Positions 20,857 to 31,113 are shown, counted from the first letter of the stretch. The stretch is DNA of 64,000 nt from Longimicrobiales bacterium (GCA_965249725.1 CBDFMQ010000002.1:576001-640000); one strand, 5' to 3'. Program-made: numbers and translations. Notes: generated by a model from the letters alone, not told the origin.

Positions 20857-22974
20857 ATGAGCCAATTGGTGACGTTTGCAAGCTGGTCCTGGGCGCTCGG
20901 CCTGACGGCGTTGGTCGTAGCCGGGATCATCTACCGCTACATGAAGGGGCAGCCCGTGGGGAGCCAGGCGATGGACGACCTGGCCGACCAGATCTATCAG
21001 GGGGCCATGGCCTTTCTACGACGCGAGTACACGATGCTCGCCGTCTTCGTGGTGGTTGTTGCCGCGCTGTTGGCGTGGGCGGTCTCGGGCCAGACGGCGC
21101 TTGCCTACCTGGTGGGGGCGTTGTGTTCGGTGCTGGCGGGCTTCTTCGGGATGACGGCCGCGACGCGTGCGAACGTGCGCACGTCCGCCGCGGCCAACGA
21201 CGAGGGCCAAGGAAAGGCACTCAGAGTCGCATTCTTCGGCGGAGCCGTCATGGGACTCTCCGTGGCGGCACTGGGTTTGGCCGGAATCGGTGCCCTCTAT
21301 TGGGTCTTCGGCGCGCCTGCGATCGGCGCGGCTGAACATCTCCGCTTCGCCGAGATCATCTCCGGCTTCGCCATGGGAGCGAGTTCCATCGCACTCTTCG
21401 CCCGTGTGGGGGGTGGCATCTACACCAAGGCCGCCGATGTAGGGGCAGACCTGGTCGGCAAGGTGGAGGCCGGTATCCCCGAGGACGATCCACGTAACCC
21501 CGCGACTATCGCGGACAACGTGGGCGACAACGTCGGCGACGTGGCGGGCATGGGGGCGGACATCTTCGAGTCCTACGTCGGCTCGGTTATCGCCACGATC
21601 GCCATCGCCGCCAGTTCGGCTGCCTTGGCCGGCAACGTCGGGAACGCGGTCGCACTCCCGATCGTGACCATCATGGTCGGTCTGGTCGCTTCTCTGGTGG
21701 GCATCGGCATGATGAAGGCTCTCGAGCGCACGGACCCGGCCGCGGCTCTGCGCAACGTGACGTTCATCGCCGCCATACTGTTTATCGCCGCCATGTTCTT
21801 CATCGTGCGTGCGCTGGACTTCCAGATGGTGGAGGGTGCGCGGACCTATCCGGCTCTGGGCCCGTGGTTCGCCATCGTCGCCGGTACCGTGGTGGGTGTC
21901 GCGATCGGTCTCGTCACGGAGTACTACACGTCCTCTAGGCCCGTCCGGAAGATCGCCGAGGCCAGCAACACCGGTGCGGCCACCAACCTCATCACCGGGC
22001 TTGCGGTGGGAATGGAATCGACCGCAATCCCGATGCTCCTGATATGTGTCGCGATCTTCACGTCCCACTGGTCTGCCGGCCTCTACGGGATCGGTATCGC
22101 TGCGGTGGGCATGTTGGCCACGGTGGGCGTAACAATGTCCGTCGACGCGTACGGACCCATCGCCGACAACGCGGGGGGGATCAGCGAAATGAGCGGATTG
22201 GGACCGGAGACGCGCGCCATCACCGATTCGCTCGACGCTATCGGTAACACGACGGCCGCACAGGGTAAGGGCTTCGCCATCGGCTCCGCCGCGCTCACGG
22301 CGCTGGCGCTGTTCTCGGCGTATGCCTCGAAGGTCGGGCTGGCAGAGACGGGGATCAACCTCGTGGACCCGATCGTTGTGATCGGTCTCTTCATCGGTGG
22401 CATGCTCCCGTTCTTCATCGCTGCCCTGACCATGACGGCGGTCGGAAAAGCCGCCCAGGGTATGGTCGAGGAGGTCAGGCGACAGTTCCGCGAGAATCCG
22501 GGAATCATGGATGGGACGTCCAAGCCGGATTCGGCGCGGTGCGTGGCGATCTCGACCGACGCCGCGCTCCGTGAGATGATCCTCCCCGGCGTCGCGGCGA
22601 TCGTCTCGCCGGTGCTGGTCGGTTACTTCTTGGGTGTCGAAGCTCTCGGCGGGTTCTTGGCTGGGGCCACCGTCACGGGCGTGCTCATGGCCCTCTTCAT
22701 GGCCAACGCCGGAGGTGCCTGGGACAACGCCAAGAAGCTCATCGAGGGTGGGGCACACGGCGGAAAGGGCTCCGAGCCTCACAAGGCTGCCGTGGTCGGT
22801 GATACGGTCGGAGACCCGTTCAAGGATACATCGGGGCCCTCTCTGAACATCCTTATCAAGTTGATGAGTGTCGTCTCTCTGGTGCTCGCGCCGTGGTTCG
22901 TACGGGTGCACGAGATCGATGTGGATGGGCAGATCTCCGGACTCATCGGCTGGGTAGCCCGCCTCTTGGGGTAG
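20857..22974 (+). CDS. hppA: Membrane-bound ion-translocating pyrophosphatase (K+-dependent type, likely Na+-pumping)
   Basis: [53 protein letters not shown] (Ala, not Lys) indicates K+ dependence. Confidence 0.95.
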
Positions 22975-23008: not shown

Positions 23009-24232
23009 ATGCGGCCGACCTCGAGCGCCATGACCAAGGATCCGAACTTCGAGAACGCCGTGGCGTTCGCTCAGGACCTCATCCGCATTCCCTCGCCCTC
23101 CGGGCAGGAAGCTGAGGTGGCCGAGCGCGTCAGGCGCGAGATGCAGGACCTCGGACTCGACGACATCCGTATCGACGAGGTGGGCAATGTCGTCGGAGTC
23201 GTTCGGGGAGATGGGACGGCCCCACCCGTTCTTCTCAACTGCCACACCGATGTCGTAGCCGAAGGAGATCACGCCGAGTGGGAGTATCCGCCCTTCGGGG
23301 GGGACATCGCAGGCGGCTGCCTCCACGGTCGGGGAGCCATGGACATCAAGGGGCCCCTGGCGCTTCAGACCTACGCCGCTGCCGCCCTGGCCGGGCGTGC
23401 CGCGGGGGACGTCATCGTCGCCCACACCGTCTTCGAGGAGCGCGGCGGCCTCGGTATGAAGCACCTTCTCGAATCGGGTAGTGTGGAGCCGGGTGTGGTC
23501 GTGATCGGGGAGTCGACCCACGGTGACGTCTGTATCGGACACCGAGGCCGTGGAGAGGTCGAGGTCGTACTGCAGGGCCTCGCGGGCCACGCCTCGGCTC
23601 CGGATCGAGCCCACAACGCTCTGGACATGGTGCCCGACGTTCTGGGAGCCGTCCAGGAGTTGGCAGGACACCAGCCGGAGGATCCGGTTCTCGGAGCCTC
23701 GAGCCTGGTGGCCACGGGAGTGGACGTCCTGCCGGAGAGCCGCAACGTCATTCCGGACCGTGTCACGGTCGTCTTGGACTGGCGCGTGCTGCCCGGCACC
23801 GACGCCGAGAGCATGATCTCACAGGTGCGTGAGGCGGTAGCTCGTCGGCTCGGCGCGCTCCCGAAGGGCTTTGAGGTGACCGTGTCGATGGCGCGTGAGC
23901 GACAGGCGGCCTACACCGGGGTGGCACACGAGCGGAGTCTCTTCACTCCGGGATTCCTCATGAATCCGCTGGACCCGGTTGTGGTGGCCGCCGCTGCTGC
24001 CGTTGGACGACGGGAAGCGCCGGATGAGCCAGCCGCCGTGCGTCCCTGGACGTTCGCGACCGATGGGGGATGGAGTCGCGGCATTTTCGGCATCCCCACG
24101 GTGGGCTTCGCGCCGGGGGAAGAACGCTTTGCCCACACGAATAGAGAGCGACTGGACGTGGAGGAGGCGGAGTGGGCCTTCGCCCGATATCCCGACCTCA
24201 TTCTCGCTCTCCAGGACGCGCTCTCCGAGTAG
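23009..24232 (+). CDS. M20/M25/M40 metallohydrolase (ArgE/DapE/YgeY-like)
   Basis: [32 protein letters not shown]. Confidence 0.88.
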
Positions 24233-24314
24233 CATCAGGGGTTGATTCCACGAGTCTCCGTGCGGGGGTGCAAGCGGGGGTACAAAACCCCCCGGCATGG
24301 CCTATATTTACGGG

Positions 24315-24374
24315 CTCATCCCGCTCCGCCTCTGTGGCGGGGCCCGTGCACTTACGGACCGTGGGAGAAACACT
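24315..24374 (+). promoter_or_regulatory. Candidate S6:S18-binding ribosomal protein leader
   Basis: TCCC can pair with the SD GGGA; inner hairpin GCTCCGCC/GGCGGGGC; CCG directly before the SD (GACCGTGGGAG), as in known rpsF leaders. TATATT -10 at 24303-24308. Confidence 0.6.
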
Positions 24375-25028
24375 ATGCGGCTGTATGAGATCGTCTACAT
24401 CTTCGATGCGACCCTCGACGAAGATGCGATCAACAAGAAGTTAGAGAAGTTCCACCCCCTCGTGACCGGGAGCGACGGAGAGGTCATGTCCGTCGATCAT
24501 TGGGGTGTCCGCCAGATGGCCTACCCCGTGAAGAAGCAGAAGGCGGGGTACTACGTCGTCGCTCAGGTTCGCTCCACTCCCGATGGACTGCCGGAGTTCG
24601 ATCGGATCCTCAAACTCGATCCCGAACTGATGCGGCACCTCGTGGTGGTGAACGAAGGCGAGCCGACTACAGGAAGGTCGATCCTCGGGGAGCGCCCGGT
24701 CCAGGCCCGCGACGACGACGACGAGGATGATCGACCGGTGCCGGATGAAGCGGCGTCCGAAGAGGGAGATGAGGACACGGTCAGGCGGCAAGGACCTCCG
24801 GAGTTCTCAGGGGGCCGTGGACGTCGGCGTCGGATGGAGGGGCCGGTCATCGAGCTCCTCAACTATAAGGACGTCTCGACGCTGTCTCAGTTCATGACCG
24901 AGCAAGGCAAGATTCTGCCGAAACGAACGACTAAGGTCACGGCTCGCTTCCAACGGCAGCTCGGTACGGCCATCAAGCGAGCCCGCTACCTTGCGCTGAT
25001 TCCGTATTTGAGGGACCACGAGGTCTAG
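24375..25028 (+). CDS. rpsF-rpsR: Fused 30S ribosomal proteins bS6 (N-terminal) and bS18 (C-terminal)
   Basis: S6: MRLYEIVYIFD..DHWGVRQMAYPVKK..GYY..LMRHLVV. S18: NYKDVSTLSQFMTEQGKILPKRTTKV..QRQLGTAIKRARYLALIPY. One frame, no stop between them. Confidence 0.9.
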   Translation: MRLYEIVYIFDATLDEDAINKKLEKFHPLVTGSDGEVMSVDHWGVRQMAYPVKKQKAGYYVVAQVRSTPDGLPEFDRILKLDPELMRHLVVVNEGEPTTGRSILGERPVQARDDDDEDDRPVPDEAASEEGDEDTVRRQGPPEFSGGRGRRRRMEGPVIELLNYKDVSTLSQFMTEQGKILPKRTTKVTARFQRQLGTAIKRARYLALIPYLRDHEV

Positions 25029-25048
25029 GCCTCCTCGGAGCGGATTTC

Positions 25049-25993
25049 TTGGATTCCACCACGCGGCCGGAGCGCACTTGGCTACGTGCCGCCGCGCTGA
25101 TGCTCATCACGCTGGGGCTCGCTGTCGTCAGCTCCGGCGTGTTGGTGGCCGTGCCGTTTCTGGTTCTCGCCGCCGTGCTCGGTGCTCGCAGGTTTCCGAC
25201 GGTAATGGCCGCGGTACTGGCGGTGGTGGTTACGCTGGGAGCTACGGCCCGCGGCGGCATCTGGTATCTGGAACGGGGATGGACAGTCATCCTGGCCGGT
25301 TTCTTCGTGGTTCTCACGATGCGGTCGCCGGGAAGCAGGTTCTTGCCGCGAGCCCTCGGGGCGGTGGTCGGTACCTTCGGGTTGGTGGCGCTCCTCATGG
25401 TGGTCCGACCGGGGTCGTGGGCCATGGTGGATTGGTTCGTCACCGAGGGGATTATGAGGAGCGTGAGCCTCGCCATGAATCTGGTGAGTGCCTGGGATCC
25501 CGACATGGTGATCCCGACCACCATGGTCAACACGGCGTTCGAAACCGCGGCCCTTCAGGGGCGGCTGTTTCCGGCACTGCTCGGCCTCTCGTCCGTCGCG
25601 GGACTCGGCGTGGCGTGGTGGGGGTATGTTCGACTCGCCACGGAGAGTGATCAGGGACTGGGTCCACTCAAGGACTTTCGGTTCAACGACCACTTTGTGT
25701 GGCTGTTGGTCCTGGGCCTGACTCTGATCGTGTTGGGGCTGGGGGATGCATGGACACGGGCGGGCACGAACGCCGTCGTGTTCATGGGTGGGCTTTACGC
25801 AGTGCGAGGTGTCGCTGTGGTCTTGTTCTTTAATGGTGGCATTTCGCTATTAGGGTTTTTCGCGATGGCGCTCGGCATGTTGGTCTTTGCGCCTTTATTG
25901 ACGATGGGTGCCCTGGTCATCGGCGTCGGCGATACCTGGCTCGATCTGCGAGCCAAAGCCGAAGCGTTGTCCAGCGGCACCACAGACACGTAG
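25049..25993 (+). CDS. DUF2232/YybS-family membrane protein
   Basis: Multi-TM protein ending GVGDTWLDLR, between rpsR and rplI. Start uncertain. Confidence 0.8.
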   Translation: MDSTTRPERTWLRAAALMLITLGLAVVSSGVLVAVPFLVLAAVLGARRFPTVMAAVLAVVVTLGATARGGIWYLERGWTVILAGFFVVLTMRSPGSRFLPRALGAVVGTFGLVALLMVVRPGSWAMVDWFVTEGIMRSVSLAMNLVSAWDPDMVIPTTMVNTAFETAALQGRLFPALLGLSSVAGLGVAWWGYVRLATESDQGLGPLKDFRFNDHFVWLLVLGLTLIVLGLGDAWTRAGTNAVVFMGGLYAVRGVAVVLFFNGGISLLGFFAMALGMLVFAPLLTMGALVIGVGDTWLDLRAKAEALSSGTTDT

Positions 25994-26006
25994 ACGGAGA
26001 CGGTCC

Positions 26007-26465
26007 ATGAAGCTCATTCTGAGGAAGACGGTTGAGACGCTCGGAGGTCAGGGCGACATCATCGACGTAAAGCCCGGTTACGCGCGTAACTACTTGATTC
26101 CCCAAGGCCTCGCCTATCAGGCGAGTGACGTCAACCTGAAGAGGTTGGAGGAAGAGCACGCGCGGGCCGAGGAGAAGGCCAAGCACGACTACCTCGAGGC
26201 ACGCCGACGGGCGGTGCAGCTCGACGGGAAGTCGCTCGTCTTCCACGTCAGGGCGGGGGAGGACGGCAAGCTGTTCGGGTCGGTCACGAACGCCGACGTC
26301 GCCGATCAGCTGAATCAGTTGGAGCTGGATTTCGAGGTGGATCGCCGCACGGTCATACTCGAGGAACCGCTGAAGACGCTCGGCGACTTCGGCGTGCCGG
26401 TTCGCCTGCACAGCCAGGTCGAGGTCGAGGTCCGGGTGCAAGTGGAGCGCGGCGAGGAAGAGTAG
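26007..26465 (+). CDS. rplI: 50S ribosomal protein L9
   Basis: MKLIL..LG..G..VKPGYARNYLIP, GKLFGSVT. Confidence 0.98.
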   Translation: MKLILRKTVETLGGQGDIIDVKPGYARNYLIPQGLAYQASDVNLKRLEEEHARAEEKAKHDYLEARRRAVQLDGKSLVFHVRAGEDGKLFGSVTNADVADQLNQLELDFEVDRRTVILEEPLKTLGDFGVPVRLHSQVEVEVRVQVERGEEE

Positions 26466-26484
26466 GCTGCTACTCGAGGGCGGC

Positions 26485-26853
26485 ATGGGAGAACAGGCGA
26501 GCACCGACGTGTCCGAAATCGGCCAAGACGTAGAGCGAGCTGCTGAGCTTGCCCTTGAGCTCAAGGCTGCCGACGTGGTCGTACTCGATCTGCGCGGTAT
26601 TTCGAGCGCGACCGACTACTTCCTGCTGGCCACCGGACAGTCCGACGTCCAGGTGAAGGCGATCGGTGATCACATCATCGGGGAACTCAAGAACCAGGGT
26701 GTCCGGCCCGCCCACGTGGAAGGGTTGGAGGGAGGGCGCTGGGTGCTCATCGACTACATTGACTTCGTGGTGCACGTGTTTCATCCCGGAGCTCGGGAGT
26801 TCTACCAGCTGGAGCTTCTTTGGGGAGACGCCCCCAGACACGAGTTCGAATGA
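26485..26853 (+). CDS. rsfS: Ribosome silencing factor
   Basis: KAADVVVLDL, DYFLLATG, WVLIDY, REFYQLELLW. Confidence 0.96.
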   Translation: MGEQASTDVSEIGQDVERAAELALELKAADVVVLDLRGISSATDYFLLATGQSDVQVKAIGDHIIGELKNQGVRPAHVEGLEGGRWVLIDYIDFVVHVFHPGAREFYQLELLWGDAPRHEFE

Positions 26854-26997: not shown

Positions 26998-28506
26998 TTG
27001 GATCAGGGCCACTCGCGACTATACCCGTTTGACCCCGGCTCCGGCGATCTGCCGGAGATCGCGGCACCCGGCGTACTTTTTTCCGGCGCCGGGGGAGGTG
27101 TCGTCACCCTCATTGTCGTCCCCGACGTCATCCAATCGTCCTGGAGTCCGGCCGCAGCAGTAGCCGTGGCTCGGGCTTGGTCCGATCAGGGCCACCGTGT
27201 CGTTCTGTTCGATTTGTCGCTGACGAACCCGGTGCTTCACGACGCGTTGGGGCTGCCGAACGCCGTTGGCATTGTCAACCTCGTCCTGCGGGGGGCCTCC
27301 ATACCCGCGGTTGCACAGCAGGCCGGGAGTGCTGGATTCCAGTTCGTGGCCGTGGGCACGCCGGTTGACGATCCCACTGAAGTCACACTGACCGAAGGAT
27401 GGTCGACGTTCGTCGACGAGGTGGGACATGCTCAGGCTACCGTCCTCTTCTATGTACCTGCAGACCTCCCCGGAGTGGATGCCCTGGTGGCCCGGAGCTC
27501 TGCCACCCTTCTCTTGGCGGGCGATCCCACTGAGGCAGAGTGGGTGGCACAATCCTTCGCTCTCGATGAAGTCTCGGGTCTCGTGGCGGAGCGGGGTGAG
27601 GCACCCTCCCCGGCGGCAGAGCCGCCCGATACGTCCGAGGCGGACAGCAACGAGCTCGCTTTTCTGGCCGCCACGCCCGGAGGTGATGGTGAGCGAGAGG
27701 CCGAGGCCACGGTCGTGCACGAGCCGGTAGAGAAGTTCGAGCCCGAAGCCCGGCGCGAAGCCCAGCGCGAGGCCCAGCCCGAGGCCCAGCCCGAGCCGGA
27801 CACACGGGTCGCGCCTGAACCCCTTGAGGAGCCTGAGCCGAGGGTCATCCCGTGGCGGCCCGCCGCTGTGGGGACCATGGTCGGGGTCGGAGCCCTGGTT
27901 CTGTGGAAGATGATGTTCGCCCCAGACGACGCGCTTTCGCCGCCGGTGCCGGTTGAGACGCCCCAGACGACGACAACGTCCGAGGCCTCGTCTGAGCCAT
28001 CGGAGCCGGACCCGCAGCAAGCGTATTCGTTGACGCTGGCTGCCTACGGGTCGGGCGATGCAGCCGGAAGACAGGCTCAGGGGCTGGCGCAGCGACGTCC
28101 GGATCTGCTCTTCATCGTGGCACCGGTGCGGGTGGCCGATCGCGTATACCATCGGGTCCTGGTCGGGCCTGCTGCGGATTCTCTAGGTGCAGAGCGTCTG
28201 CGTGCCTCCCTAGCAGAGACTCTGGGCGGCGATGGCGCGAGTTGGATCGTGCGACCGACTCCGCTCGCGTTCGACTTCGGCGAATTCGATTCGACCCAGG
28301 CGGCGGCGGAGCGCGTCGCCGAGATCGGCAGCGCCGGCATCGGAGCGTATTACTTCGAGGTCTCCCGTTCGGCTGCCCCGATGTTCCGGGTCTACGCAGG
28401 GGCCTACGAGAGTCCTGCAGAGGCCGAGGTCATGAGGGGGGCGTTGGACGCTGCATTGGGAGACGTTCCGACGCTGGGGCCAAGGATCGGGCGATATGCT
28501 CGCTGA
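26998..28506 (+). CDS. Membrane protein: degenerate MinD/BY-kinase-like domain, linker, TM, two SPOR-like domains
   Basis: RVVLFDLSLTNPVLH..G.VNL without Walker A; TM near 27860-27920; YHRVLVGP and FRVYAGAYES SPOR-like repeats. Start uncertain. Confidence 0.7.
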   Translation: MDQGHSRLYPFDPGSGDLPEIAAPGVLFSGAGGGVVTLIVVPDVIQSSWSPAAAVAVARAWSDQGHRVVLFDLSLTNPVLHDALGLPNAVGIVNLVLRGASIPAVAQQAGSAGFQFVAVGTPVDDPTEVTLTEGWSTFVDEVGHAQATVLFYVPADLPGVDALVARSSATLLLAGDPTEAEWVAQSFALDEVSGLVAERGEAPSPAAEPPDTSEADSNELAFLAATPGGDGEREAEATVVHEPVEKFEPEARREAQREAQPEAQPEPDTRVAPEPLEEPEPRVIPWRPAAVGTMVGVGALVLWKMMFAPDDALSPPVPVETPQTTTTSEASSEPSEPDPQQAYSLTLAAYGSGDAAGRQAQGLAQRRPDLLFIVAPVRVADRVYHRVLVGPAADSLGAERLRASLAETLGGDGASWIVRPTPLAFDFGEFDSTQAAAERVAEIGSAGIGAYYFEVSRSAAPMFRVYAGAYESPAEAEVMRGALDAALGDVPTLGPRIGRYAR

Positions 28507-28653
28507 GGGCCGGAATACGCCGGCTTCATGTGGACCTCATCTAGAGGGTGGGTTACCTTTGCGGCCGTCCAAGCGGGGAGTACGACGGCCCCGTGCTTCG
28601 GGCGCATCGTGCCCGTCGCGGCGCGGAGTTTTGACCATGCGAAGGGTGCACGG

Positions 28654-31113
28654 ATGAGTCCGGATATTCCAGACTGGGAGTCCATTGATCCGACCGGCGA
28701 GGCCCTCTCCGAACCTGTCGGAGCGGCCCTCGACTCTGCACACTCGGTTGCCGGGTGTGTGGTCGTCTTGGTCGCATCGGACATCGACCGACAGTGGGGG
28801 GCCAATACGAGCCTGCTCATCGCCCGCGAGTGGGCTTCAAAGGGCCGCAGCGTGCTGCTTGCGGACGCGTCCCTTGATGACCCGGTCCTCCACGAAATCG
28901 TCGACGGAGGCGGGAGTGAGGGACTGTCCGACGTCATGCTCTACGGAGCTTCGGTCAAGCAGGTAGCTCGCCCGGTGGAGGGCGGTATTCTCCTGTGCAC
29001 AGCGGGCACACCCGTCGGTGACACCGAGGAGGTGTTGGCCCACCCCAAGTGGGATATGGTGATTCAGGGCTTCCAGGAGGCCGGGGCTCTGCTGCTCTTG
29101 CACCTGTCCGCTGGCACTCCGGGAGCCGGGACCCTGCTCGACAGGGCTTCGAGAGTCATCCTTATTTCAGAATCGGACGGAGATACAGCCGCAATCGTCG
29201 GTGCCGCGTCGGACCGGCTCCTCACCGTGGTCGGTCCTGCCGTCGCAGAGGAGGTGGAGTCCCCGTCCGAGCCCGCCACCGTCGTCGAGGAGGTGGAGTC
29301 CACGGGCGAGGCTGCGACCGTGCTCGAGGAAATGGAGCCCGCGACCGAAGCGTTCGCCGTTGAGGATGACGGCGAGGAGGAGGCGACATCCGAACCGGAG
29401 CTCGAGTCCGCTCCGACGATGGAAGTTGAGCCGGAGCCCGCAGAGGTGCTCGAGGAGGAGCCGGAACCGGAGGTTGAGATGGTCTCTGAAAACGATGGCG
29501 AACTAGAACCCGACCTCGAGTCGGAGCCGAGTCCCGAGTCGGAATCGGAGCCAACGGACGGCGAGCTCTTCTCGATGGACGAGCTTCCCGAGTCCACCGG
29601 CAACGCGGCGGAGCAGGTCGACGAGTCCGGCGCCTTCAGTTTCGACTCAATGTCGGGTTCGCAGTACGACGCGGACGATGACACCCAAGCGGAGGCATCT
29701 ATGGATGAGCCGGCTGCCCCGGTCGAGCAGACCCCTTCGCCCGGTGGTGAGGCTGAGGAAGAGGCCGAGCCCTCCTCAGAGGCGGATGAGGCGACTCCGT
29801 CCGTTCCGGAGGAGGCTGCCCCGGCGACGACGGAGGCGGTGGAAGACTCGGGCATGGTAGAAGGCGTGACCCGATCCTCATTGGAGATGGATGAGGAGGC
29901 CGTGGCGGCGGCGGCGGAGGAGGCCCATCTCGATATGGACGGCTTCGAGACCGGCGCAGGCTTCGATCTTGAGGATGCCCCGCAAGATGACGATGGCGGG
30001 GTCGCGGAAGAGCCGGCGTGGGGAGGTGAGGCCGAGGACGAAGAGGCGGCCTCTGATGATTTCGGCTTCGGTGGCGGCGGTCTCGAGGTTGAGGCCAGCC
30101 CCTTCGCTGAAGAGGACGCACCGGTCGATGAACATGAGGGCGAGGGTGTGGATGTGGGTGAGGAAGCCGCCGGCCTTGCGGGTGCTGCCGGTGACGAGGC
30201 TTTCGGCGATCGCGGTCCCCCGCCGGCGGAGCCCGATGCGCTCGACGCCGGCGATGACGGACAGCCTGCCGATACGGATGGTGGCTCCATTGCCGTAGAT
30301 CCGGCCGCCGAGGCGATGGGTGGCGGCCCGGAGACCGCTTCCGCCGAGGACGAGGCCCCGGATGTAGAGATCGAGTTCGACGATGCGCCCCCGGCCAAGA
30401 TGTCGGGGTTGGAGGAGTTGGAGCGTAGGCGGAAGAGAGGCGCGAGAGTTCGGCAACTGCTCGTGGCAGCTGCTACGGCGCTCGTCGTCGGGGGTGGAGG
30501 CGTCGGCATCGCGTACTTCGGTTTCGTCAACATTCCCGGCATTACGCCGCCGGATCGTGTGCGGTCTGGGGTGCCCGCCCCGGTGGAGCTCCCCGGGCCG
30601 ACGCCGGTGACACCTGTGATCAGCCATGTGCTCGCGGTCGATGCGTGGCGGAGCCTGGAAACGGCTTTGAGCACCGTGGATGCTCTTCGGGAAAGGCTTC
30701 CCGAGTACCTGTTCTTCATCACGGTCACCGAGGTGGACGGGGGTGACCAATACGTGTTGCTCGCGGGCCCGGCGTTCAGTGCGGTGGAGGCCAATGCGCT
30801 GAAGGAGCCGCTGGCCGAGGTCCTTGACCGATTGGATCCGGCCACGTGGACAGTTCAAGAAGCGAGGTATTCCTTCTTCTTCGGGGAGTATTCGGATGCC
30901 GCCGACGCGGCGGGCAGAGTGCAGTCTCTGAACGCAACAGCGATTCCGGCTCACGCTCTCGAGGTCAGCTATCCGGATGAGACCACGGCGATGCGCGTGT
31001 ATGGCGGCGCCTTCGTGGACGAGTTTCAGGCGGCTGCGATGGGACGACTCCTCCGCTCCAACGACCTGGATGACGTACGTCTGACTGAACGAAGAGGTCG
31101 ACTGCCCGAATGA
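28654..31113 (+). CDS. Paralog of the preceding gene with a very long acidic linker
   Basis: SVLLADASLDDPVLH..EGLSDVM; roughly 400-aa D/E-rich linker; TM near 30455-30530; YVLLAGPAFS and MRVYGGAF SPOR-like repeats. Confidence 0.75.
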   Translation: MSPDIPDWESIDPTGEALSEPVGAALDSAHSVAGCVVVLVASDIDRQWGANTSLLIAREWASKGRSVLLADASLDDPVLHEIVDGGGSEGLSDVMLYGASVKQVARPVEGGILLCTAGTPVGDTEEVLAHPKWDMVIQGFQEAGALLLLHLSAGTPGAGTLLDRASRVILISESDGDTAAIVGAASDRLLTVVGPAVAEEVESPSEPATVVEEVESTGEAATVLEEMEPATEAFAVEDDGEEEATSEPELESAPTMEVEPEPAEVLEEEPEPEVEMVSENDGELEPDLESEPSPESESEPTDGELFSMDELPESTGNAAEQVDESGAFSFDSMSGSQYDADDDTQAEASMDEPAAPVEQTPSPGGEAEEEAEPSSEADEATPSVPEEAAPATTEAVEDSGMVEGVTRSSLEMDEEAVAAAAEEAHLDMDGFETGAGFDLEDAPQDDDGGVAEEPAWGGEAEDEEAASDDFGFGGGGLEVEASPFAEEDAPVDEHEGEGVDVGEEAAGLAGAAGDEAFGDRGPPPAEPDALDAGDDGQPADTDGGSIAVDPAAEAMGGGPETASAEDEAPDVEIEFDDAPPAKMSGLEELERRRKRGARVRQLLVAAATALVVGGGGVGIAYFGFVNIPGITPPDRVRSGVPAPVELPGPTPVTPVISHVLAVDAWRSLETALSTVDALRERLPEYLFFITVTEVDGGDQYVLLAGPAFSAVEANALKEPLAEVLDRLDPATWTVQEARYSFFFGEYSDAADAAGRVQSLNATAIPAHALEVSYPDETTAMRVYGGAFVDEFQAAAMGRLLRSNDLDDVRLTERRGRLPE

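Follow-up and report, generated by a model that had tools for sequence, protein, structure and literature searches.

A fused rpsF-rpsR gene fixed in one family of the Longimicrobiales

Background

Ribosomal proteins S6 and S18 are commonly used to illustrate cooperative 30S assembly in which a heterodimer forms first and then binds. In their canonical arrangement, known from E. coli and T. thermophilus, bS6 and bS18 are separate chains with an acidic S6 tail and a basic S18 tail, and their genes follow the order rpsF-rpsR ... rplI. The two proteins heterodimerise before binding the rRNA-S15 complex, as stated in the passages of PMC4647458 that cite Held 1974, Agalarov & Williamson 2000 and Recht & Williamson 2001; the passages of that paper on S18 contacts place the interface of E. 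coli S18 with S6 at Y23 and K24, and its RNA contacts at K60, R61 and R63. The same source describes the rpsF_leader, a 5' UTR that binds S6:S18. In Bacteroidia, the groove of bS6/bS18 holds the 3' tail of the 16S rRNA (PMC7797042). Many bacterial bS18 proteins outside Pseudomonadota carry a CX2CXnCX2H motif, according to the part of PMC11791143 that cites mycobacterial ribosome structures, and the Zn-free 'C-' bS18 proteins treated there, including the mycobacterial alternative S18 that it cites, are free-standing paralogues beside a C+ copy. For a fusion of ribosomal proteins, the nearest precedent found is that of L10 and L12 in Candidatus Sulcia muelleri DMIN, which the relevant section of PMC2859065 gives as absent from a sister strain.

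We analysed a window of 64,000 nucleotides from a Longimicrobiales genome, in which an earlier note had proposed that rpsF and rpsR form a natural in-frame fusion. We compared this locus with the systems above, with its relatives in the Longimicrobiales and Gemmatimonadota, and with two-domain proteins from other lineages.

Results

Domains and neighbourhood of the fused gene

We confirmed a single open reading frame (ORF) of 217 aa that contains a complete S6 and a complete S18 without an internal stop, as the earlier note had described, since both Pfam domains lie in one frame (Table 1). Ribosomal_S6 (PF01250) was matched over profile positions 2-89 of 90 with an E-value of 1.2e-24 and 86.7 bits against a cut-off of 27, and Ribosomal_S18 (PF01084) over profile positions 5-52 of 52, in the S6 frame, with an E-value of 3.8e-21 and 75.4 bits against a cut-off of 21, which places the two halves in bS6 and bS18, respectively. 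In a sequence search of solved chains, S6 chains align to residues 1-94 of the fused protein and residues 12-74 of E. coli S18 to its residues 153-215, while no solved chain among the best 60 of 94 matches covers both halves. The full-length chain would be about 24.6 kDa by a rough hand estimate. The mostly acidic stretch quoted in the earlier note corresponds to residues 113-135 and the Arg-rich stretch to residues 148-153, and ssb/priB is indeed absent between the two halves. A Pfam search of the whole genome (4.16 Mb, 3 contigs, 95.76% complete) returned one S6 hit and one S18 hit, both in the fused ORF; hence, the search for a further rpsR or rpsF that the note had advised found none.

Table 1. 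Features of the fused rpsF-rpsR locus, in window coordinates
Feature	Position	Strand	Basis
Structured 5' leader of the fused gene	24320..24367	+	RNAalifold covariation, 37 upstream regions
Leader outer helix, CCC with GGG of the SD	24320-24322 with 24363-24365		
Leader hairpin P1, GCTCCGCC with GGCGGGGC	24323-24330 with 24337-24344		
Leader hairpin P2, CCGT with ACGG	24344-24347 with 24354-24357		
SD, GGGAG	24363-24367		
Fused rpsF-rpsR ORF, bS6-linker-bS18	24375..25028	+	217 aa + stop
bS6 domain, residues 1-94	24375..24656	+	Pfam PF01250 at residues 4-91; solved S6 chains; AF2
Acidic linker, predicted disordered, residues 95-140	24657..24794	+	AF2; E. coli S6 alignment; split-sister tails
Junction motif PPEFSGGRGRRRR, residues 141-153	24795..24833	+	Near-invariant in 124 fused proteins
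bS18 core, Cys-free type, residues 154-217	24834..25025	+	Pfam PF01084 at residues 162-209; E. coli S18 alignment

We built an AF2 model on an alignment of 124 fused proteins. The S6 domain is modelled confidently (pLDDT 83-91) and the S18 core moderately so (73-77), and residues 95-162, which include the linker and the junction motif, fall below 50 and are predicted to be disordered; for the model as a whole, mean pLDDT is 66.5 and pTM 0.58. The equivalents of the E. coli S18 residues that contact S6 and RNA, placed with an offset of 141 taken from the solved-chain alignment, are Y164, K165, K201, R202 and R204, all of which are invariant in the 124 fused proteins. The fused protein therefore resembles the canonical heterodimer in its complete domains, its invariant interface and RNA-contact residues and its acidic S6 and basic S18 tails, and the canonical gene order is also kept; however, it has neither a free S6 C-terminus nor a free S18 N-terminus, and the PPEF element at the junction is new.

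Upstream of the fused gene lies an M20 peptidase gene (23009-24232), with a membrane H+-pyrophosphatase gene at 20857-22974 (PF03030, E-value 2.3e-265). Downstream, a 314-aa ORF (25049-25993), which encodes a multi-pass membrane protein without a Pfam match at E-value ≤1, separates the fused gene from rplI (26007-26465), and rsfS follows (26485-26853); a membrane-like frame is also found 3' of the fused gene in one relative (L066). Two large proteins encoded at 26998-28506 and 28528-31113 combine a long, acidic central part of low complexity with a SPOR domain at the C-terminus, the former with an E-value of 8.3e-13 and the latter with 0.005, below the cut-off.

Distribution of the fusion

The relatives that we surveyed were metagenome-assembled genomes (MAGs) labelled Longimicrobiales or Gemmatimonadota, and we denote three GTDB families of Longimicrobiales as f1, f2 and f3. 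In a first sample of 40 relatives, the fused frame was present in all 24 f1 genomes, and S6 and S18 were matched separately in all 16 f2/f3 genomes. The order-wide sample contained 401 genomes, 257 of which belong to f1, including the source genome (G000). A single match was returned by 202 of the 257 f1 genomes. The 150 single-match rows listed are all from f1, full-length (query 1-2 to 207-217) and stop-free, and eight more single-match f1 genomes were full-length and stop-free in the phylum sample described below, bringing those seen directly to 158; the remaining 44 were judged by their E-values, about 1e-63 to 1e-82, versus 1e-45 at best for either half. Two or more matches were returned by 50 f1 genomes, all of which we re-examined. 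Both halves lie in one open frame with long linkers in 39 of them (251-345 aa in the eight fusions translated), the gene is cut by contig ends in six, often inside the repetitive linker, an N run interrupts it in one, and the frame is broken in four. Among the other f1 genomes, one has a partial match at a contig end and four have no match. We found no clean rpsF/rpsR split among the 257 f1 genomes, of which 241 are fused or consistent with being fused.

The phylum sample consisted of 151 Gemmatimonadota genomes with a completeness of at least 85%. All 17 f1 genomes in it are fused, and a full-length match free of stops is absent from the 134 others, which represent 11 further families; seven of these 134 gave single matches, all of which contain stops. 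Seven unpublished genomes (G025, G052, G103, G116, G166, G175 and G458) are included in the tallies of split genomes, and the conclusion is independent of them. Among protein clusters made at 90% identity, 1665 match at E-value ≤1e-3, and the best 120 of them all contain both Pfam domains in 214-227 aa. The search of related genomes for two-domain proteins, which the earlier note had advised, thus shows that the fusion is a fixed trait of family f1, sampled in at least 80 genera, and not sporadic, with split genes in the outgroups; the note had allowed that close relatives might all be split, and the f1 relatives are fused instead. The natural in-frame fusion that it proposed is accordingly supported, as the sole source of S6 and S18 in this genome and throughout the family.

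Independent contigs and frame-broken relatives

Independent support for the sequence comes from contigs, not raw reads, of four other public runs from four studies, which cover 24200-24863 and 24834-25200; no piece spans the whole ORF, and neighbouring pieces share 24834-24865. No indel or stop was found in the fused ORF in these contigs, including the linker, where the earlier note had considered that one might appear. Differences occur at three places: at 24470, a G>C falls on the third position of a Gly codon and is synonymous; at 24866, one run alone has T>C; and at 24271, 5' of the gene, the four other runs have a 13-nt insertion. This insertion repeats the adjoining 13 bases in tandem, within a G-rich stretch that resembles a hairpin and separates the M20 peptidase gene from the rpsF promoter region.

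The four f1 genomes with a broken frame have the break between or inside the halves. In G326, a 1-nt shift lies inside the PPEF motif, and the S6 frame then continues for 535 aa; G385 lacks one base in a C run; G363 is shifted within a very short linker; and G314 has a deletion within S18. We read these breaks as probable assembly errors. In several loci, namely, L066 (G326), L068/L040 (G385), L070 (G363), L054 (G314) and L076 (G272), frameshifts, N runs or contig ends coincide with the repetitive acidic linker, whose GAn repeats seem to make it difficult to assemble.

Linker, junction motif and the start of the S18 half

E. coli S6 (135 aa, with an acidic tail) aligns to residues 1-132 of the fused protein, and the acidic linker corresponds to what was once the acidic C-terminal tail of S6. 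Between a conserved 'NEG' and PPEF, the 32 fused ORFs measured have a segment of 35-118 aa that shows little sequence conservation but is D/E-rich in every ORF except one; the longest fused ORF has 345 aa. Despite these large changes in length, the frame of the linker is kept in all 73 intact fused ORFs seen.

By contrast with the linker, the junction motif P-P-E-F-S-G-x-R-G-R-R-R-R-x-E-G-P is conserved at the amino acid level in 34 distinct fused ORFs, with synonymous sites left free: Pro is encoded by CCG, CCT, CCC or CCA, Gly by all four of its codons, and Ser by AGC as well as TCN. Since the amino acids are fixed while the synonymous sites are free, the junction must be translated in the S6 frame and be under selection at the protein level. 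Its SGGRGRRRR part occupies the place of the basic N-terminal tail of S18, and Firmicute S18 chains align from query residue 145/146, at chain residue 7. We found no counterpart of PPEF in the split sisters, which is why we consider this element to be new at the junction.

The earlier note had pointed out that no clear Shine-Dalgarno (SD) sequence precedes the only candidate internal Met, the ATG at 24834, which encodes Met154. Reading the sequence directly, we likewise found no GGAGG-type SD at a working distance before it. At this position, the codons of 33 of the 34 ORFs are ATG (15), CAC (9), GTC (4), GTG (3), ATC (1) and GTT (1), so at least 15 of the 34 ORFs lack a usable start there. 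Therefore, the S18 half has no conserved start of its own. The note had also suggested that GTC-AGG-CGG-CAA (24780-24791), encoding VRRQ at residues 136-139, might be a relic of the old S18 start. This idea did not hold up: among 24 listed fused relatives, only L004 ('FRRQ') and L005 ('VRRQ'), both of the same genus as the source genome, share it, and the 34 distinct fused ORFs vary at positions -26 to -24 relative to the motif.

Split sisters and the origin of the fusion

In f2/f3 genomes with a single match, exactly one in-frame stop was present in all 10 checked. We read through seven of these, in which both genes share one frame, and the rpsF stop abuts the rpsR start with 0-3 nt between them, in the form of either DEDEDEDEEEEE, stop, MARGRSKPCPLCESG or EEGEEE, stop, TMRPQRKAC; the S6 of a split sister ends in DEDEDEEEEE followed by the stop. 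The split genes of f2/f3 resemble the fused one in a 48-56% identity across the S6 part, an acidic S6 tail, the absence of ssb/priB between the genes and a related SD-pairing leader, but they differ in that a stop separates the genes, the S18 is of the Zn type, and the leader lacks the CCGT/ACGG hairpin.

Since the outgroups are split, the fusion is the derived state. To judge from these sisters, it could have originated by the loss of one stop codon: starting from an rpsF directly adjoining rpsR, in some cases in the same frame with the stop touching the start, such a loss would have joined the acidic C-tail of S6 to the basic N-tail of S18, and the short new junction motif PPEF would then have been fixed. 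Because the fusion is confined to one family, its taxonomic distribution suggests that it arose once, at the base of f1 or earlier. Fission would be hard to regain, since the stop, the start and the SD are all gone. Neutral fixation would account for the fusion as well as a putative adaptive advantage does.

A structured 5' leader

We aligned 37 upstream regions of fused relatives (alignment A2, range L004-L080) and obtained with RNAalifold a consensus of 15 pairs, six of which show compensatory changes. In this alignment, 96.2% of cells are paired, versus 31-50% when the partners are slid, and the covariation score was reached by none of 500 shuffles. A looser form of the pattern was found at 41 of 49 fused loci, at 13 of 17 split Longimicrobiales loci and in 14 of 5118 background windows. 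We had considered the leader to be specific to the fused family, but rejected this, since the strict pattern had missed the split sisters and the looser one found a related leader in them. This shorter leader precedes their rpsF and lacks the second hairpin (CCGT/ACGG); as a related form stands before rpsF in the split sisters, the leader is older than the fusion.

A scan of 23900-26600 against Rfam returned no family at E-value ≤1. The layout nonetheless resembles that of the rpsF_leader, as outlined in the part of PMC4647458 that deals with it: a conserved structure of three helices adjoins rpsF, its outer stem contains the SD, its inner stem is conserved, and cytosines next to it are invariant. 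Besides the missing Rfam match, the difference from that account is that the putative effector would here be one chain and not a dimer. A TATATT-like box at 24300-24312, about 10-15 nt before the leader and common to many A2 relatives ('CTA..TATTT'), may, by eye, be the -10 element of the rpsF promoter.

Loss of the S18 Zn motif

We compared the S18 motif region (24834-25025) with those of L027-L032, L041 and L056-L065. All 14 split Longimicrobiales S18 proteins have a CX2C...CX2H motif ('KPCPLCESG...GMCARHQRQ'). In every fused S18 examined, all four ligand residues are absent ('RRMEGPVIE...KVTARFQRQ'), and neither the two Cys before the YKD motif nor the Cys-x2-His about 30 residues later, by which a Zn-type S18 is recognized, is found. 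Gemmatimonadales-like outgroups (L042-L047) keep three of the four positions. The fused S18 thus resembles the 'C-' bS18 proteins in lacking the four ligands, but unlike those that PMC11791143 cites in the section at hand, it is the only copy and is tethered. As the loss of the Zn motif is one evolutionary event, its coinciding with the fusion proves nothing.

Other S6-S18 fusions

Searching clusters at 50% identity, we found about 30 proteins of 149-266 aa that match both halves among the best 150 of 10,566 hits at E-value ≤1e-3, with 25-36% identity to the fused protein. Both Pfam domains were present in 32 of 33 candidate fusions scanned, and a profile made of 31 such proteins, run with at most 8000 candidates, retrieved at least 29 two-domain proteins among its best 120 matches; one of these is an NCBI record of a MAG labelled Gammaproteobacteria, and one UniRef entry is filed under tsetse fly. 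Ten candidates that we looked up belong to clusters of 1-3 members, mostly on short contigs. Further fusions include P0173, P0193, P0183, P0255, P0275, P0295 and others, some of which look proteobacterial. Those compared (P0173, P0193, P0183 and P0275) have the identical domain order, but their linkers are short and non-acidic or mixed, and they lack PPEF. From their sequences, these fusions look like independent, much rarer events, and some may be errors.

The S6-S18 fusion is therefore recurrent, and f1 is by far the largest fixed case in the searches made. The fused proteins are already in the databases, where most named JGI records say 'S6' only, and one is named 'ribosomal protein S6/ribosomal protein S18'. 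The earlier note knew of no such fusion as a standard feature of bacteria. We found no description of an S6-S18 fusion in the full-text literature covered, which leaves aside most subscription journals, but in the sequence record the fusion is not unique, given the rarer fusions in other lineages and the JGI record that names both proteins. The Sulcia fusion, as the pertinent section of PMC2859065 presents it, likewise joins adjacent genes for ribosomal proteins that bind each other, but it concerns one strain, whereas the S6-S18 fusion is fixed over a family.

Discussion

We consider it likely that the locus is a genuine, fixed gene fusion whose one ORF, beginning at the rpsF start codon, yields a single bS6-linker-bS18 chain. 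Three other explanations bear on this. Two ordinary genes might appear joined through a sequencing or assembly error that erased the stop between them or altered the frame; the assembly is of the metagenome type, and a few relatives do have frame errors within the low-complexity linker region. However, such an error would have to recur in the 241 f1 genomes that share the fused frame and in the matching protein clusters, the best of which are all two-domain, and the contigs of four other runs and studies agree with the frame, so we regard an artefact as refuted, with a probability that is practically nil. It might also be that two proteins arise from one ORF, with S18 initiated also, or only, at Met154 or nearby, in which case the fusion would be a matter of annotation. 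An in-frame ATG is indeed found here and in 15 of the 34 distinct relatives, and GTG in three more, but the position holds CAC, GTC, ATC or GTT in at least 15 others, and no SD-like sequence stands at a working distance from it. Moreover, keeping the frame over 73 intact ORFs would be needless if S18 started by itself, and the pattern at synonymous sites is that of a translated junction. Internal initiation is thus largely refuted already, and we judge it very improbable.

The remaining alternative agrees with the single translated chain and has it cut afterwards at or near the PPEF/SGG junction, which would release an ordinary acidic-tailed S6 and an S18. The most conserved element outside the domains lies exactly at the would-be N-terminus of S18, as would fit a processing site, and the junction is disordered, hence accessible, in the AF2 model. 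There is also a precedent in the processing of the N-terminal extension of L27, which in Firmicutes is cut by the Prp protease after a Phe. On the other hand, no Prp-type processing protease (PF04327) was found in the genome searched, at its 95.76% completeness, and the motif region also matches the basic tail that S18 normally has at its N-terminus, whose conservation RNA binding would explain in any case. Nor is cleavage required, as both domains stay free with a linker of this length. We therefore hold processing of the chain to be unlikely, though clearly less so than internal initiation, and prefer the uncut fusion; that the chain stays uncut in the mature ribosome is something we infer from sequence, as would be any selective advantage.

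If the single chain is the functional form, it would deliver the S6:S18 dimer pre-formed and at a fixed 1:1 ratio to the central domain of 16S rRNA, and a fixed stoichiometry, which the earlier note had also proposed, is a reasonable consequence to expect of such a gene. On the platform, the acidic linker, being disordered, would form an outward loop close to the 16S rRNA 3' end, and the fused protein probably represses its own synthesis through the conserved SD-pairing leader. A more far-reaching combination of these features is doubtful in our estimate: the acidic S6 tail, turned into a loop of 35 to more than 100 residues anchored at both ends over the bS6/bS18 groove, might act as an electrostatic gate on SD-anti-SD pairing or mRNA loading, with the tether and PPEF replacing the lost zinc knuckle of S18. 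If this were true, the f1 ribosome would be zinc-independent at the S18 site and its initiation would be tuned differently.

Conclusions

The fusion is real, clade-wide and useful for work on ribosome assembly, and is of the type expected between obligate partners. The rpsF-rpsR pair seems predisposed to fuse, to judge from the coinciding Zn-motif loss and from the rarer fusions that recur in other lineages. For surveys of uncultured bacteria, products mislabelled 'S6' mean that S18 could be scored as missing in naive marker-gene screens, while the fusion itself clearly marks out this uncultured family of Gemmatimonadota as a clade. As a fixed single chain that is the sole copy of both proteins, the fused S6-S18 is a ready-made construct for studying assembly and regulation, and family f1 of the Longimicrobiales (Gemmatimonadota), whose members live in soil and sediment, offers a natural test of the roles of free termini, separate synthesis and 1:1 balance.
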